Shown piece by piece: positions 1 through 40,499 of a stretch of DNA of 64,000 bases (position 1 is the stretch's first letter; the number at the start of each line of letters is the position of its first letter). The DNA is from Octopus sinensis (Eukaryota), in assembly GCF_006345805.1 (NCBI RefSeq), contig NC_043004.1, positions 89,094,001 through 89,158,000 of the forward strand, in the 5' to 3' direction. A program made the position numbers and the translations under genes. A model generated the notes under the pieces. That model was given only the letters and a program-made list of their open reading frames with translations. It ran no database searches and had not been told where the DNA came from.

Positions 1-1010
1 CAAGTTATGCAGATGATACAAAAGTTTCACAGGCAATACAGAACCCTGAAAACACTATGCACCTGCAATGTGACCTGCACAAAATATACAAGTGGGCTGA
101 AAAGAATAGCATGCAGTTTAATGCTGAAAAGTTTCAAGATTTATGCTATCAGCATGCAAAACTAAATGCAATACCCAATAAATACTCTGGACCTGGTGAG
201 ATTGCAATCCCAGAGGCACAATCAGTGCAAGACCTGGGTATTTACATGAGTAATGATGCAACCTTTCATGTGCATGTTGCTAAATTGGCAATGAGATGTA
301 GGCGGCTGACCGGATGGATTCTTAGAGCTTTTAGAACAAGAGACCAGGAAACCATGATGGTCCTCTGGAAGACACTTGTCCTAAGCCACTTTGACTATTG
401 CTCTCAGCTATGGTCACCAACCAGTGTCAAATTAATCACAGAACTTGAGGCAATCCAACGAAGCTACACGAAGAAGATAGCCTCTGTGCAGCATATAAGC
501 TATTGGGAAAGACTCAAGAGATTAAGACTCTATTCCTTAGAGCGTAGGTGAGAAAGATATGCCATAATATACATCTGGAAGGTCCTGGAAGGACTTGTCC
601 CAAACTTTGACATCGAGAGTTACACAAATACTAGAACTGGGTGCCACTGCATAGTGCCAAGGACTCCAAATTTGCCATCAAGATGTAGGACAAGATACTG
701 TGATAGCTTGGGCTTCAGAGGTCCACAGCTCTTCAATATCCTCCCGAATGACCTGAGAGACCTGCATGGGGTGGATGCAGATGTCTTTAAAATAAAGCTG
801 GACCTCTTCCTGTCAGGTGTCCCAGATGAACCAACTTCACGGCAGGAGGTGCAGATGAGGGCAGCTGCATCAAACTCTCTCATGCACCAAATGTCAATTG
901 CTAAAAAGCATTCGTGAAGTAAAATCATGTAGCAACACCAAATGGCGGTGCCCCAGCATGGCCACAGCACATGAGCTGAAACTAGATCAAATGAAAATCA
1001 AAAAAATGAA
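1..1010 (+). mobile_element. CR1/L2-group LINE, 3' part: reverse transcriptase C-terminus (one premature stop) plus 3' UTR
   Basis: Frame starting at base 3 reads SYADDTK (RT YADD motif at 6-17), then LQCDL..IYKW...M.FN..K, DLGI, LDYCSQLWSP-like and RLKRLRLYSLERR. A TGA at 549-551 interrupts the frame, which continues through GPQLFNILP...FKIKLDLFL to 917. A short 3' UTR and A-rich tail follow. Confidence 0.9.
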
Positions 1011-1687: not shown

Positions 1688-3235
1688 TCATCATCATCAT
1701 CATCGTTTAACGTCCGCTTTCCATGCTAGCATGGGTTGGACGGTTCAACTGGGGTCTGGGGAGCCCGAAGGCTGCACCAGGCCAGTCAGATCTGGCAGTG
1801 TTTCTACAGCTGGATGCCCTTCCTAACGCCAACCACTCCGAGAGTATAGTGGGTGATTTTATGTGCCACCGACACAGGTGCCAGATGAGGCTGGCAGACG
1901 GCCACGCTCGGATGGTGTTTTTTATGTGCCACGACACAGGTGCCAGACGAGGCTGGCAGACGGCCACGCTCGGATGGTGTTTTCTTATGTGTCACCGACA
2001 CAGGCGCCAGACGAGGCTGGCGAACGGCCACGCTCGGATGGTGTTTGTTACGTGCCCTCAGCACGGAGGCCAGTCAATGCGGTACTGGCTACGGTCACGT
2101 TCGGATGGTTTTCTTATGTGCCACCGGCACTGGTACCACAAGGATACAAATTCCATTGATGTTCATCTATTTTGATTTGATTTGATTTGATTTGATTTTC
2201 ACTTGCCTCAACAGTTCTTCACAAGTGTCACAAGAAGGAAGGTATGCACCACGGGTTATGGCTTCACTAGTCTTGCCGGGTCTTCTCACGCACAGCATAC
2301 TTCCATAGGTCTCGGTCTCTAGTCATTTCCATGGTGAGACCTAACGTCCGAAGGTCGTGCTTCACCACCTCGTCCCAGGTTTTCCTGGGTCTACCTCTTC
2401 CATGGGTTCCCTCAACTGCTAGGGATTGGCACTTTCTCACACACCTATCTTCATCCATTCTCGCCACATGACCATACCAGCGCAATCGTCTCTCTTGCAC
2501 ACCACAACTGATGCTTCTTAGGTACAACATTTCTCTCAAGGTACTAACGCTCTGTCGAGTAAGTACACTGACATTACACATCCATCGGAGCATACTGGTT
2601 TCGTTCCTCACGAGCTACGCATGTCCTCAGCAGTCACGGCCCATGTTTCATTGCCATGTAGCATAGCTGTTCGTAACATGCATCATACAGTCTGCCTTTT
2701 ACTCTGAGTGAGCGAGTACCTTTAGTCACCAGCAGAGGTAAGAGCTCCCTAAACTTTGCCCAGGCTATTCTTATTCTAGCAGTTACACTTTCAGCGCACC
2801 CACCCCCACTACTGACTTGGTCACCTAGATAGCGGAAGCTATCAACTACTTCTAGTTTTTCCCCCCGGAAAGTGACGGAAGTTGTTTTCTGCAGATTTTC
2901 GGAGGTCAATGCTCCAGAGCATCTGCCACATACAAAAACTATCTTCCCAGTTAGCCTACCTTTGACATTGCTGCACCTCTTATGTGTCCATAGCTTACAC
3001 TGGGTACATCTTATAGAGTTTCTACCTACACCTTTTCTACAGATCGAGCAGGGCCATCTTCCTGAGGATATTTGTGGATTGTCTACCTTTCTACTTATTA
3101 GTACTTTGGTTTTAGCTAGGTTGATTCTAAGGCCCTCGATTCTAAACCCTCCTTCCACACCTGGAACTTCTCCTCCAGTTCTGATAGTGACTCAGCAATT
3201 AGAGCGAGGTCGTCAGCATAGAGGAGCTCCCAGGG
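1688..3235 (-). mobile_element. RTE-clade LINE, 5'-truncated at the RT YADD motif, with long 3' UTR ending in (GAT)n
   Basis: [27 protein letters not shown], a Cys-rich segment (CSIC...C..C..W.H..C), FRYLGD, RVKGRLY and RRLRWYGHVARM...GRGRPRKTW. Several frameshifts. The ORF ends at 2267. The UTR 2266-1688 ends in ...ggacgttaaac(gat)n. Confidence 0.92.
1861..2140. repeat. About 63-bp tandem repeat (4-5 units) in the RTE 3' UTR
   Basis: atgtgccaccgacacaggtgccaga.gaggctggcagacggccacgctcggatggtgttt recurs at 1861, 1924 and 1987, with diverged units at 2050 and 2117. Confidence 0.9.
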
Positions 3236-7028: not shown

Positions 7029-7238
7029 ACATATATATTATTATTGTTATCATTAATCAACAGAAGTTACAGAGTGACTTAAGGGCTGAGAGTTACAAAA
7101 CTCTAAATTCTTGAGTCACTCTGTAACTTCTGATTATTAATAAAAGATATATATACTCATGCTGTGAGCTCTATTTTTCCTGCTTGCATCACCAGTCTTC
7201 TCTCTCTCTCTCTCCCTCTATATATATATATATATATA

Positions 7239-7463
7239 TTTCTTTACTACCTACAAGGGGCTAAACATAGAGGGGACAAACAAGGACAGACAAAGGGATT
7301 CAGTTGATTACATCGACCCCAGTGCGTAACTGGTACTTAATTTACCGACCCCGAAAGGATGAAAGGCAAAGTCGACCTCAGCGGAATTTGAACTCGGAAC
7401 GTAGCGACAGACGAAATACTGCTACGAATTTTGCCCAGCGTGCTAACGTTTCTACCAGCTCGC
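7239..7463 (-). mobile_element. SINE family B
   Basis: Head gcgagctggcagaaacgttagcacg, B-box-like gagttcaaattc, central gaggtcgactttgcctttcatcctttcggggtcgataaa..aagtacc. From memory this resembles a conserved central domain shared by metazoan SINE superfamilies. Many copies, e.g. 19202-19370(-), 20806-21035(-), 28876-29106(+), 35320-35475(+), 37490-37705(+), 42105-42530(-), 44750-44955(-), 49790-50002(-), 50662-50870(-). Confidence 0.88.
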
Positions 7464-7480
7464 TCTATATATATATATAA

Positions 7481-7704
7481 GGCAAGCTGGCAGAAAGGTT
7501 AGTGCGCCAGGTGAAATGCTTAGCGGTATTTCGGCTGTCGTTACGTTCTGAGTTCAAATTCTGCAGAGGTCGACTTTGCCTTTCATCCTTTCAGGGTCAA
7601 TAAATAAAGTACCAGTTTCACACTGGGATCTATGTAATCAACTTAATCCATTTGTCTGTCCTTGTTTGTCCCCTCTATGTTTAGCCCCTTGTGGACAGTA
7701 AAGA

Positions 7705-7706
<2 letters not shown>
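7481..7706 (+). mobile_element. SINE family B, head-to-head with the preceding copy
   Basis: Reverse complement of 7239-7463 with scattered substitutions; separated by a short (TA)n. Confidence 0.88.
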
Positions 7707-7741
<35 letters not shown>

Positions 7742-19045: not shown

Positions 19046-21298
19046 GTGTATATGTTTGTGTCTGTTTGTCCCCCCAGCATCACTTGACAACCAATGCTGG
19101 TGTGTTTACATCCCCGTGACTTGGCAGTTCGGCAGAAGAGACCGATAGAATGAGTACTAGGCTTACAATGAATAAGCTCTGGGGGTCAATTTGCTCGACT
19201 ATAAAGGGGGAGGGGACCAGTCAATTAGATCGACCCCAGTACGCAACTGCTACTTAATTTATTGACCTTGAAAGGATGAAAGGCAAAGTTGAACTCAGGC
19301 TGTGAAGACAGACGAAATACCACTAAGCATTTCATCCAGCGTGCTAACATTTCTGCCAGCTTGCAACCTTAATGAAGCAGATTTATTGATCAAAAGAATT
19401 CCAGTCTTGACCATTTTGTCATTTAAGGACTATAATATTTGATATTAAAATATTTAATGCCTACCATTATTACCGTATAGTATCTTTATCTTCTACTTAT
19501 TTCAGTCACTGAACTGCAGCCATGCTGGGACACCACCCTGAGGGGTTTAGTTGAACAAATTGACCCTGGTACTTCATTTTAAGTCTGATACTTAGTCTAT
19601 AGATCTCTTTCGCCAAACCAATAAGTTACAGGGATGTAAACAAACCAATGCCAATTGTCAAGTGATGGTGGTATTCAGACAAACACAAAGACATACACAC
19701 ATACATATATACATACATGTAATAATATATATATATGTATGAATGTATGTATGTGTGTGTGTATTTGTATATATATATATATTTGTATGAATGTCTATGT
19801 GTGTGTGTGTTTCTCTCTCTCTCTATATATATATATATATGTATATATATAATGGGCTTCCATACAGTTTCCATCAACCAAATTCACTCAAAAGGTATTG
19901 GTCAACCCAAGGCTATAGTAGAAGACACTTGCTCAAGGCACTGTGCAATGGAACTGAACCTGAATCCACATGGCTACAAAGTAAGCTTCTTAACCGCACA
20001 GCCATGGAGTATGATTCAAGGAACTTTGGCTGCTATTTCTAGCATGTTGAACAACCTCATAGAAACTCCTTTATAGATGCTATCATAATTTGCTTTCAGA
20101 CCAACAACAAAATGATAGGCATTAAAAACATCAAAATGTCTATACTCAGACAATAACACCCTTGCATTATTTTGCTTTTTTTTTTTAATCATTAAACTAT
20201 TATTCTTTTACTGTAAAATAATTGCCATTTCTGGATTCTAGAACATTTCTTTTTTTTTAATAGACCAAACAATAGCCCATATCTGGTGTGTGAGTTTGCT
20301 AATTAGCACTTTGCTAATTACAATTATTGGAGCCTATTTATATTCTACAGCCACCAAAGATGGACAATTAAAAATCAAAACGAACATATGACTAACACTC
20401 AATGAAAGCATTTACAAAGAGTTATAACTGCTTAAAACAGAAAGGCTGCATACTTTTGAAAGGATAAAAACCCCACTTCAGTCATCAATGACCATAGAAT
20501 TGCACCTAGAAAGTGTCCCTGCGAGACACAAGTTCAAGTAGGTTTTTTTTTTAATGGAAGACCAGTAGTTGCCCATGCATACCAGCCTCCCCTCTCTGTA
20601 CCACTAATGTTATCCAATAGAATGACAAAGACCGATACAGCTTGGCACCAGTGACATTGGAAGTCACTTCTACAGCTGAGTGAACTGGAGCAACGTGAAA
20701 TAAAGTGCCTAGATCAAGAACACAAACACACAGCCTGGTGAAAGGATGAAAGGCAAAGTCAACTTCGGCAGAATTTGAACTGAGAACGTAAAGACATGAA
20801 ATACCTATTTCTTTATTACCCACAAGGGGCTAAACACAGAGGGGACAAACAAGGACAGACATAGGTATTAAGTCAATTACATCGACCCCAGTGCGTAACT
20901 GGTACTTAATTTCTCGACCCCGAAAGGATGAAAGGCAAAGTCGACCTCAGCGGAATTTGAACTCAGAACACAGCGGCGGACGAAATACCACAAAGCATTT
21001 CGCCCGGTGTGCTAACGTTTCTGCCAGCTCGCCGCTAAGCATTTTGCCTGGCATGCTAACATTTCTGCAGCTCACCTCCTTTGGCCATAAGAAAATATTA
21101 CCTTGCTTGGAAATAGGTGAGGGTTGGCAACAGGAAGGGCATCTAGCTGTACAAAAGCAGTCTCAGTTAAACCCACGCAAGCATGGAAATGTGAACATCA
21201 AAGAATAATGAGGGCAATGGCAGAGAAGAAGGAGGAGGCAACAGCAGTGGCAGTAATGGTAGAGGTGGCAGTAACAATTATGGTGTTGGTGACAACAA

Positions 21299-28847: not shown

Positions 28848-29474
28848 ATATATATATATATATATATACATATAAAGGCAGCAAGCTGACAGAAACGTTA
28901 GCATGCCGGGCGAAATGCTTTGTAGTATTTCGTCTGCCACTGTGTTCTGAGTTCAAATTCCGCCAAGGTCAACATTGCCTGTCATCCTTTCGGGGTCGAT
29001 AAATTAAGTACCAGTTACGCACTGGGGTCGATGTAATCGACTTAATCCATTTGTCTGTCCTTGTTTGTCCCCTCTATGTTTAGCCCCTTGTGGGCAATTA
29101 AGAAATATATATATATGAGATGTGCTGAAAAGTTCCTGGCTTTCGGTAAAAGAAAATACAGGAGGATCGGTTAATTATGATTTTATACAACACATTCCCC
29201 TCTCAGATTCACATATTTATTGCAGTGGTCCTTCAATTTTCCAAAGCCCTGTAAAAGAACTCAGAAGGTTGGGCCTCCAAATAGGCCTTTCACAATACCC
29301 TTAAAACCAGGAACTTTTTCATAGCCCCTCAGACATATATATAATTACCATTCACCTAAATCTGGATATACACTTCTTTATTCACATCTATGTAGGCTTT
29401 CTCTTTGGTAATGCTTTTCCCTACATACATGCATAAATGTAATTCTTTTCCTAAATAAATTGCACTTCATATTT

Positions 29475-38105: not shown

Positions 38106-38986
38106 CCTAGAATAATTATGCTGGAATTTTAAAAAAATAATGAAATTTGTACTATGTACTGTTGGCCATTGCCATGAGATTAAATTTAACATTGTGTTGT
38201 TGAAAAGATTTTTTCTCTTATGTTTTATGAGGGACATGATGAGGAACTGTCATTATGATTGTTCAAACTATTAGCAATAGCAGCTAAATTATTTGCAAAT
38301 CACATCTCTTGCCAAAAAAAAGTAGAGGGAAAACAAATGGGAGATACATATTGAATAAAACAGTCTAAGATGAGTTTTGTTGTATCACCATACCCAACAG
38401 ACCAGGAGCAGAGAAGGCATGTCATTGATGAGGCTGCATCAAAAGAACTTTGATAAACTTACCACATTAATTGATTGACTGAACAATTATTCAAACAGTC
38501 GATTAGTTAATTGGTTAATTGTCAACTAACTGGCAAATAAAAATAAAGAAGAGAAACAGAACCAGTGATTATTAGTGGCATAATGGCCTTCTAGAGATAC
38601 AACTCAAAATGTTTCAACACAAGAGTTCACATCAAGAATCTTGCAAACCAAATATAAAAATGAAAAAACTAAGAAAGGCTTTATCTGGAAAGAGGGGATA
38701 ATTTTGGTTAAAATATTTCTGATTTTAATGCCTGATTTTCAGCTAAGCTATGAGGGCAATGTCAGTCAAGTACCAGTATTTGACCGGTACTTACAATTTC
38801 AACAGAAAAAACAAGCAAGGGTTAGTGACAGGAAAAACATCCCACTGTAAAACAATACCTCAATACCTCAACAATACATTTATCCAAACCATACTAGCAT
38901 AGAAAATAGACATAAAAATAAATGTGTAGACACCTTAAAGTTTTAGAAATAATATTATTATTTAACAGCACGATGCAGCACGAAGT

Positions 38987-39037
38987 TTTGTCAGTGAACA
39001 GGTCGCAGTCTCAAAGCAACGAAAATATTTTGACAAA
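38987..39037 (+). ncRNA. Hammerhead-like motif, G3-C8 core variant
   Basis: tttgtca-GTGAACA-g-gtcgc-agtctcaaa-gcaac-GAAA-a-ta-t-TT-tgacaaa. Stem I has 7 perfect pairs; the stem III region AAATATTT is palindromic. Confidence 0.6.
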
Positions 39038-39654
39038 TTAAATTTAAATGTTGAAGTGAATCTAATGGTTTTATGTGTTTCTTAAATGGCTTATAAACAC
39101 CTTCCACGCTGCAATTGTTTTCGTTCCAGCACACGATCCCAGATCAAGTCACTCGCTATGCAAGTACATCTCCGTAATATTATTTAACCGTTATAATTAT
39201 AAAAGGAATCTATTTTGGTCGTAGATGCTTACATTTAATTTAACTAAGTCACTACTTGTATCAAAGTACAGTTTAATCTCGTCTGTCTGTTATTTTCTAT
39301 GATATCGCTCTAACAATTGTTTCTATAAACTTTTTCCTGGGCTTTATCTTGTCTTATCAGTTTGATTTTATAAGCTATGTTATTATCATTTGCTATGGTT
39401 GTGCGGTTAAGAAGTTCACCTTGTAACCAGATAGTTTTAAGTTCAGTCCCACTAAGCAGCACCTTGGGCAAGTCATTTTTACCGAAGTTTCAGACCAACC
39501 AATGCCTTGGTAGACAGACATTGTGGATACCCACTGTATTATATATATGGAAATAATATATATACGGAGAGTTTACAAAAAAAACAAAAGACGAAGACAG
39601 GTGGTGTACAAAACAAACAGATGTATTAGTATAACGCTCAGGAATAGAAAAAAT

Positions 39655-39690
39655 CTTTTACATTTCGAGCCTACGCTCTTCTACAGAAAG
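39655..39690 (-). ncRNA. Minimal hammerhead-like motif (A6-to-U core variant)
   Basis: cttt-CTGTAGA-a-gagc-gtag-gctc-GAAA-tg-TA-aaag; stems I and II pair perfectly. Confidence 0.55.
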
Positions 39691-40499
39691 GGACACAGAA
39701 AAAACAAGGAGAGAAACAAGCGAGAGCGAGGGATAATTCATCCAGGTTGGTACCATTCAAGCACCCTAGTATAATCCAAGTTCTGGCTAAACTCATTGAA
39801 TGATATGGAATAACTTGCGATTATTTAAGGTAACACAATCATATAGTATATCATTCAATGATAAAGGCTGTAATAATAAAACTGCGTAAATGAATAATTC
39901 TCCATCTTTATTTTAACGTCTTTTTTGTTTGTATATATGTATGAGTGTTTGTGTGTGTGTGTGTGTTAATAGTATATTACATTTAAGGAAGGGATTGGTT
40001 AATTTAGAAAGCACACATGGTGACCTAAACCCATTGCTGTGCCACAGGGAGAAGAGGAGAGGAGGAGAGAGAGAGAGAGAAAGAGCTGACCCAAGTACTT
40101 GAGAGAAAGAGAGAGAAAGAACGAGAGGAAATCAGAGAGAGAGAGAGAGTGAGTGAGTGAGCTAAGAGAAGAAATAACTTCAGTATTTGATTGATACTCA
40201 TTTGTCAACTTCTGGAGAATTACAAGACAAAGTTGGTCTTAGCAAGATTTTGAATTTGAGCACAGAGAACCAGGACAAGTACTGCAAAGCACTATATCTT
40301 GGACAATTCCTCACCTTCGGAAAGAATTCATAGTATGTGGAATAAGTTGGATTGCCATGAGAAATAGAAATTCTAGAAATTCAAGTGGAAGGTGTTGTAA
40401 ACCTGACTGTGGGCAGTGAATGAAGAAAGAATATGCAATGAAGATTTGGGAGATATTTGTGATACTGTTTACAATTGTGAATTTCACTGTCTTATTGTA

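Follow-up and report, generated by a model that had tools for sequence, protein, structure and literature searches.

A hammerhead variant in a short octopus insertion

Does a short insertion in the octopus genome carry a hammerhead ribozyme whose 3–8 base pair has been turned round and, if so, where does the insertion come from and would the ribozyme still cut? The question arises from a window of 64,000 nucleotides of Octopus sinensis (contig NC_043004.1), the whole stretch of DNA that was analysed, in which a preliminary description had reported a young insert with the core GUGAACA in place of CUGANGA. The reading that we favour, without regarding it as secure, is that the insert arose by retro-copying from the transcript of a Penelope-like element (PLE), of which it holds the first ~208 nt, with a family-wide G3–C8 hammerhead that probably cleaves itself slowly. 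The features of the window copy, all on the + strand, are as follows.

38956–38966, +: left target-site duplication, 11 bp (read from the sequence)
38967–38971, +: five extra bases repeating element positions 38977–38981 (read from the sequence)
38972–39177, +: copy of the PLE transcript 5′ end, from the start site to the distal reverse transcriptase (RT) start site
38987–38993, +: hammerhead stem I, 5′ strand; 7 of 7 pairs with 39031–39037
38994–39000, +: core GUGAACA; G3 at 38994, C8 at 38999, A9 at 39000
39001, +: extra nucleotide (G) between A9 and G10.1
39002–39020, +: stem II (39002–39006 with 39016–39020) and 9-nt loop II; 4 of 5 pairs here
39021–39030, +: G12-A13-A14-A15.1, palindromic stem III stub (39024–39029) and U17 (39030)
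39031–39037, +: hammerhead stem I, 3′ strand (read from the sequence)
39086–39178, +: opening 31 codons, beginning with the ATG, of the PLE RT-endonuclease ORF; frame open into the element body in loci L413 and L416
39118–39120, +: internal 3′ terminus of short arms, putative RT start site 1, ORF +33 to +35
39121–39177, +: PLE ‘tail’ ending at the distal terminus, putative RT start site 2, ORF +92
39178–39188, +: right target-site duplication, 11 bp (read from the sequence); its first base may also be templated

The coordinates of the preliminary description all agree with the window sequence: the perfect 7-bp stem I, the GUGAACA core with its G3 and C8, and the palindrome (39023–39030, extending to 10 nt at 39022–39031, with GAAA at 39021–39024) are present as reported. 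The extra G at 39001 had gone unmentioned; an additional nucleotide between A9 and G10.1 is described as a hallmark of the minimal hammerheads of PLEs (Cervera and De la Pena 2014, PMC4209133). The reported ‘4 of 5’ pairs in stem II hold for the window copy because of a G>A change at 39018, which is private, CpG-type decay; the family has 5 of 5. A>G at 39033 is a common variant (11 of 109 arms, as we call the single copies of the unit) in which stem I keeps a U·G pair.

The three-way junction with stems I and II and G10.1–C11.1 is in place, as are U4 G5 A6, A9, G12 A13 A14, A15.1–U16.1 and H17; each core letter occurs in at least 95% of arms except G12, a CpG position, at 91%. The 3–8 pair is Watson–Crick, G–C in at least 90% of matches and C–G in a sister family. 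As the canonical identity of C3 and G8 is replaced by G3 and C8, we file the motif as a hammerhead variant. The extra nucleotide (39001), the palindromic and unstable stem III (39024–39029) and the location within a PLE pseudo-LTR are those of a minimal PLE hammerhead, and cleavage is predicted after 39030. A descriptor that allows any Watson–Crick 3–8 pair has its sole match in the window at 38994.

The swap is family-wide and compensatory

The insert is a dispersed repeat. Searching the 2.72-Gb genome gave 4,201 candidates, and among the 40 scored the main matches are 94–98% identical. A pattern of 19 letters in which positions 3 and 8 could be any base has 7,013 matches against 0 for its reversed control; these are arms, not insertions, and decayed copies escape the pattern. 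Since 425 of them lack C8 and 261 lack G3, at least 6,327 of the 7,013 (90%) are G3–C8. C3–G8 was found in nine matches, one in the family and eight in another repeat. G3 and C8 are kept in all of the best 30 family copies and in most coding copies of the parent element, and they are the majority state in all four subfamilies, which range in divergence from 6.7% to 2.6%. GTGAACA is therefore a property of the family, and the genome-wide count shows neither the CUGANGA majority nor the unpaired 3–8 majority that, according to the preliminary description, would have contradicted its reading.

Between subfamilies, changes affect none of the 42 core and stem positions but 8 of 73 other 5′ UTR positions (one-sided p = 0.023), and loop II differs. 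The unit is also present in public runs under four organism labels, where positions 3, 8 and 17 show no variant at 5% or more (four runs, from four organism labels); these runs are assembled contigs, with none recorded as RNA, and bear on neither expression nor cleavage. A metagenome scan returned three loci, of which the two with long matches are short and have no hammerhead-like core.

The reality of the swap is best judged from a sister PLE family (59% RT identity to the parent), 8 of 10 copies of which have a minimal hammerhead at the same place, with C3–G8, C9 and U17; none was found in the remaining two. When the families are aligned, both partners have changed in 4 of 11 pairs, namely one pair of stem I, the 3–8 pair, one of stem II and one of stem III (A15.2–U16.2 in the window family, G–C in the sister), and all stay paired. 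This covariation is one comparison of two lineages (five rows), with the structure drawn from the window copy. The sister’s C3–G8 at the same place, together with compensatory changes in stems I, II and III, makes the swap a real double change, and we are very confident that the motif is homologous to PLE hammerheads and that its swap is truly compensatory, so that a natural swapped 3–8 pair in a hammerhead homologue, as first proposed, is borne out. Because the sister family also has U17, this base preceded the swap.

The same alignment excludes a chance pattern in a repeat, to which we give next to no probability. Such a pattern would agree with the results of Rfam, which has no hammerhead among the best 150 of 199 rows for the window and no match whatever for an intact family copy, and with the window copy folding no better than shuffles (z = −0.14 and −0.90). 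However, the intact family form reaches z = −2.5, and the descriptor matched once in 200 dinucleotide-matched random windows, both strands included.

Two side observations concern neighbouring families. In the sister hammerhead, C replaces the conserved A9 in all eight copies found and in inverted arms (L320 ~7270–7310; L321–L323, L325–L327, L329), a second core variant in the same lineage. Another repeat family (locus centres L091–L094 and L096–L099) has a canonical C3–G8 minimal hammerhead with a stem II resembling that of the sister family.

C3–G8, unpaired G3·G8 and G3–C8 all survive in one genome, and it is conceivable, if doubtful, that the lineage inverted its 3–8 pair through G3·G8, later re-paired as G3–C8. 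G3·G8 makes up 33 of 100 matches listed among the 425 without C8, the mirror change 16 of 100 listed among the 261; among the matches listed, G3·G8 is about three times commoner than predicted from the mirror-image change. Among independent pseudo-LTRs that continue into the element body, five have a core that can be read and three of these five have G3·G8, so that a presumably dead core did not block copying. The full pseudo-LTR/ORF/pseudo-LTR copy at L416 (minus strand; 5′ unit 6316–6108, 3′ unit 583–374) has G3·G8 upstream of the ORF and G3–C8 downstream. In the tree, G3·G8 lies mainly in an older clade (support 85/90), as expected of an intermediate; that clade also holds G3–C8, and one young copy has G3·G8 in its inverted arm. 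With both states in the older clade and in L416, the tree of these sequences does not settle whether G3·G8 was the intermediate. Upstream of ORFs, G3·G8 seems to be over-represented (3 of 5 loci).

A copy of the 5′ end of a Penelope-like element

The unit is not free-standing. It lies directly upstream of an ORF in L413/L331 and L416/L337, it recurs at the 3′ end of coding copies, and some unit copies have upstream sequence in common. In L413 and L416 it continues into the element body, with a start codon that corresponds to window position 39086 and a frame that is open beyond. Since the unit stands in frame upstream of the ORF, the insert is the 5′ UTR of a coding PLE plus 31 codons, and its origin from the 5′ end of a PLE we regard as nearly certain.

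The parent has one ORF, encoding an RT plus, at the C terminus, a GIY-YIG endonuclease with two cysteines between GIY and YIG; L310 has an open stretch of 1042 codons. PF01541 scores above cut-off on the endonuclease piece, while the RT, unscored by Pfam, was recognised from motifs and from homologues annotated as RT. A CX2-5CxxC linker precedes the endonuclease. This is a feature of the Neptune and Nematis clades (PMC8557442), and the motif places the parent with Neptune or Nematis without narrowing it to one. Partial tandem pseudo-LTRs, an inverted 5′-truncated second copy, a tail at one end and a (TA)n target bias, listed as PLE features in PMC8557442 and a preprint, complete the structure of a canonical EN+ PLE. 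A search for the parent through GIY-YIG matches led instead to another PLE family, one with two ORFs, whose DNA is not similar to that of the unit. A two-ORF PLE family at L131, L133 and L135–L137 is young, with many intact RT-endonuclease frames of 780–781 codons, and descriptors found no convincing hammerhead in it.

The insert in the window is bounded by the 11-bp direct repeat reported earlier (38956–38966 and 39178–39188), which is in the sequence and falls within the family’s 10–14-nt target duplications. The parent’s next base after the distal end of the unit is T, the same as the first base of the right duplication. An empty paralogous site was sought and none was found; the downstream flank is single-copy. 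The copied segment is two bases short at its 5′ end and is preceded by the five extra bases at 38967–38971. Short repeats like these are found at other 5′ junctions of the family; the five bases likely record a short template jump as cDNA synthesis ended. Complementarity of about six bases between the ends of the unit (38972–38977 and 39167–39172) closes a long-range stem in the fold predicted, which could possibly bear on the choice of RT start site.

The many CpGs noted earlier are there: nine in the insert, an observed/expected ratio of 1.14 vs 0.38 in the flanks. Its youth is relative. Compared with a near-majority copy of the family, the window copy has changes at 5 of 206 bases, three of them CpG decay and one disrupting stem II, yet its subfamily (mean divergence 5.4%) is older than two others (2.6–2.8%).

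Other repeats share the window. A separate common repeat at 39577–39713, 96% identical to a stretch of L413, lies 390 bases downstream and is no part of the insert. An inverted repeat at 7219–7726, with 254-nt arms that are 87% complementary and have no spacer, consists of two copies of a dispersed repeat, with related copies at 20801–21035 and 28865–29116, and may be another two-armed insertion. Open stretches at 3–548 (+) and 2637–3191 (−) look, by eye, like fragments of LINE-type reverse transcriptase genes.

Arm ends suggest internal initiation on uncut RNA

To characterise the borders we used the first 100 matches to a 3′-side pattern on one contig together with the other arms there, giving 138 arms in 92 insertions. 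Their 3′ ends cluster at two places, ORF +33 to +35 and ORF +92. Short arms end exactly at 39118–39120 in 38 of 138 cases (54 within 39114–39121), and loose ends lie at this position in public runs too; long arms end at 39176–39180 in 67 of 138, a terminus past which the parent element runs on into its body. Of 46 two-armed, head-to-head insertions, 42 are long–short, two short–short, two long–other and none long–long. A larger set (n = 108; partly biased, with some paralogues) has 85 long–short and two long–long. This pattern matches in vitro results for another PLE, whose RT starts at two internal sites. Within the larger set, the arms of one insert agree at 458 of 504 diagnostic bases (91%) vs 57% when shuffled, and share 40 of 498 rare variants (8%) vs 1.2%. 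Such agreement could come from a single RNA, from a single source locus or from later gene conversion. Among 93 pairs scored for target duplications, 36 lie in simple repeats, 29 have none and 28 have duplications of 7–17 nt, 21 of these being 10–14 nt.

At the 5′ side, 60 of 138 arms start within the same five positions, which lie upstream of the ribozyme and not at its cut site. A peak at the cut site was sought and is absent: two of 138 arms begin no more than 2 nt from it, and three junctions can be read as cut-site starts only through stem I microhomology. The inserts extend across the cut site, which means that they were copied from uncut RNA. In 35 of 48 promoter-less copies, vs 0 of 43 promoter-bearing copies (counted over all fetched loci, some array copies included), the start is preceded by a G, and the upstream sequence of promoter-bearing copies has a TATA-like box at −30. 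Cap-derived G is known from LINE-1, and by that analogy we read the G here as a copied cap.

The fixed 5′ end might instead be a splice junction, with the intron retained in promoter-bearing copies and removed from short ones. We think this improbable. The sequence just upstream does resemble a branch point, a pyrimidine tract and AG; the intron of D. virilis Penelope ends beside its hammerhead (PMC4209133); and the TATA-like box is weak evidence for a start site because the genome is so TA-rich. However, short copies have nothing in common upstream of the single G, which would leave a first exon of only three bases.

Even less probable, and by a clear step, is the view of the 208-nt unit as a non-autonomous element in its own right, SINE-like or a retrozyme made from RNA circles, that only borrows PLE enzymes. 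Short matches are certainly numerous (~7,000, vs 403 candidates for the 3′ UTR of coding copies), a few ~400-nt tandem arrays exist on one contig, and animal retrozymes have been proposed to derive from pseudo-LTRs (10.64898/2026.07.22.740005). Yet the unit agrees base for base with the PLE’s own 5′ end, first codons included, and has subfamily marks in common with coding copies. The shared starts upstream of the ribozyme also speak against independence, as do the copies themselves: all 92 sampled insertions are single or head-to-head, not the tandem hammerhead units that define retrozymes, and tandem units of the family occur at a few loci only.

Retro-copying of the 5′ end of a PLE transcript would account for these borders as follows. 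We envision that a promoter in the pseudo-LTR makes a capped RNA that runs from the likely start site through the minimal type I hammerhead to the first 31 ORF codons and beyond. The element’s RT-endonuclease would cut AT-rich DNA with a stagger of 10–14 nt, and reverse transcription would begin inside the start of the ORF, at +92 on one strand and at +33 to +35 on the other. Initiation this close to the RNA 5′ end would copy cap to tail only and yield the thousands of ~208-nt inserts, often with an inverted second arm, while initiation in the downstream pseudo-LTR would yield the rarer coding copies. Since uncut RNA is the source of the short inserts, selection on the ribozyme, if any, would act on master elements.

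Tandem copies were seen at L348–L355 (contig C30, 11.1–12.5 Mb; C12295), where units of ~400 nt consist of the hammerhead unit and ~185 nt of element body. In appearance these are arrays of the retrozyme type derived from the 5′ end of the PLE, and several units have G3·G8.

Would the variant cut?

The 3–8 pair belongs to the catalytic conformation of the hammerhead (PMC3884650). In the PLE of the anole, C3G and G8C each abolish cleavage and the double mutant partly rescues it (PMC11167929), as the preliminary description had stated of engineered swaps; cleavage there requires protein. The description had also called the UUU triplet a poor substrate. U17 is not unusual in PLE hammerheads, being present in 24 of 56 examples by our count, one of them UUU (Fig. 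S3 of PMC4209133). Folding predicts mispairing between positions 3 and 17 at 0.67 with U17 vs 0.98 with C17, and U17 may thus suit G3. One source states, showing no data, that a G3–C8 variant has lower activity with C17 than with G17. On balance we lean towards some residual catalysis in the family form, in which self-cleavage would likely be slow and assisted by dimerisation or protein; the window copy is probably weaker since its stem II is damaged.

The main competing possibility, considerably less probable in our view, shares the PLE origin but holds the ribozyme to be dead or negligible, G3–C8 being a relic and the fold kept for another role, such as binding the element’s protein or shaping the 5′ UTR, or hitch-hiking on a few masters. 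It would account for the missing cleavage footprint among the 138 arms and for the amplification of G3·G8 copies, also upstream of ORFs. The predicted folds agree with it as well: a G3·U17 wobble over the cut site has a probability of 0.67 in the family form and 0.80 in the window copy, and among the palindrome duplexes scored, the catalytic 6-bp dimer helix reaches −0.2 kcal/mol vs −3.8 for a competing 10-bp duplex predicted to bury A13, A14 and U17. The sister family does without A9, and insertion of the anole PLE in vitro was unaffected by hammerhead mutants (PMC11167929). Against this, the 3–8 pair matters only in the catalytic conformation (PMC3884650), so that a double change restoring it is hard to explain structurally, and the core and stems have stayed constant across four subfamilies while loop II varies.

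Relation to known ribozymes and elements

If the pair was truly inverted, this would be the first natural G3–C8 hammerhead family that we found described in the literature searched, where that core appears as engineered only and PLE hammerheads of octopus do not appear at all. Priority is uncertain: Lunse et al. 2017, Hammann et al. 2012, Przybilski and Hammann 2007 or supplement file 1 of PMC4209133 may list it. Inversion by way of G3·G8 would further mean selection on catalysis as such among the PLE masters, for example to obtain more-than-unit, promoter-bearing copies from cut-and-joined RNA, with the mass of short inserts still made from uncut capped RNA. The role of PLE hammerheads is an open matter, as they are almost always present, yet poor cutters and dispensable for insertion in vitro. 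A natural series within one genome (sister C3–G8, minority G3·G8, majority G3–C8) allows one to ask whether catalysis is under selection. Descriptors fixed on CUGANGA or UUGANAA miss whole families, here ~7,000 motifs invisible to Rfam. The anatomy of the inserts provides in vivo support for two-site, two-strand priming, previously demonstrated in vitro for a single element, and accounts for the abundance of short ‘solo’ copies, which on this view are by-products of internal priming.

Among known systems, the minimal PLE hammerheads of PMC4209133 are close in form: they are likewise type I, lie in a pseudo-LTR, and have G10.1–C11.1, an extra base between A9 and G10.1, a short palindromic stem III and frequent U17. 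Most of their copies are solitary and dispersed, with some opposite-strand pairs 100–700 bp apart. The octopus family differs in its 7-bp stem I, in its extra base (G, vs A, C or U in their consensus) and above all in G3–C8, since all 56 representatives of their Fig. S3 start with C3 or U3. The sole core covariation reported in the parts of that study considered here is U3–A8, and the descriptors given would miss G3–C8. Natural U3–A8 hammerheads (Perreault et al. 2011, PMC3088659) are a precedent for Watson–Crick covariation at 3–8, but they keep a pyrimidine at 3 and a purine at 8, whereas G3–C8 reverses both and needs two transversions.

Animal non-LTR retrozymes (10.64898/2026.07.22.740005; PMC7229834) are similarly short, non-coding, derived from pseudo-LTRs, dependent on PLE enzymes and equipped with a type I hammerhead. 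They are built of tandem units with a hammerhead in each, whereas copies of the present family are mostly single or inverted and likely start at the cap site. A close counterpart in mechanism is Poseidon PAc of Anolis carolinensis (Frangieh et al. 2024, PMC11167929), which also has its hammerhead near the ORF start and, in vitro, a tail bounded by two RT start sites within the ORF, AT-rich targets, extension of both strands and uncut RNA as the main template. Its tail measures 30–40 nt vs ~58 nt here, Poseidon is without the CX2-5CxxC linker (Neptune/Nematis type) of the octopus parent, and its natural C3–G8 core overlaps the ORF, whereas the octopus ribozyme lies wholly in the 5′ UTR. The engineered C3G/G8C mutant of PAc, however, has precisely the core that the octopus family carries by nature.
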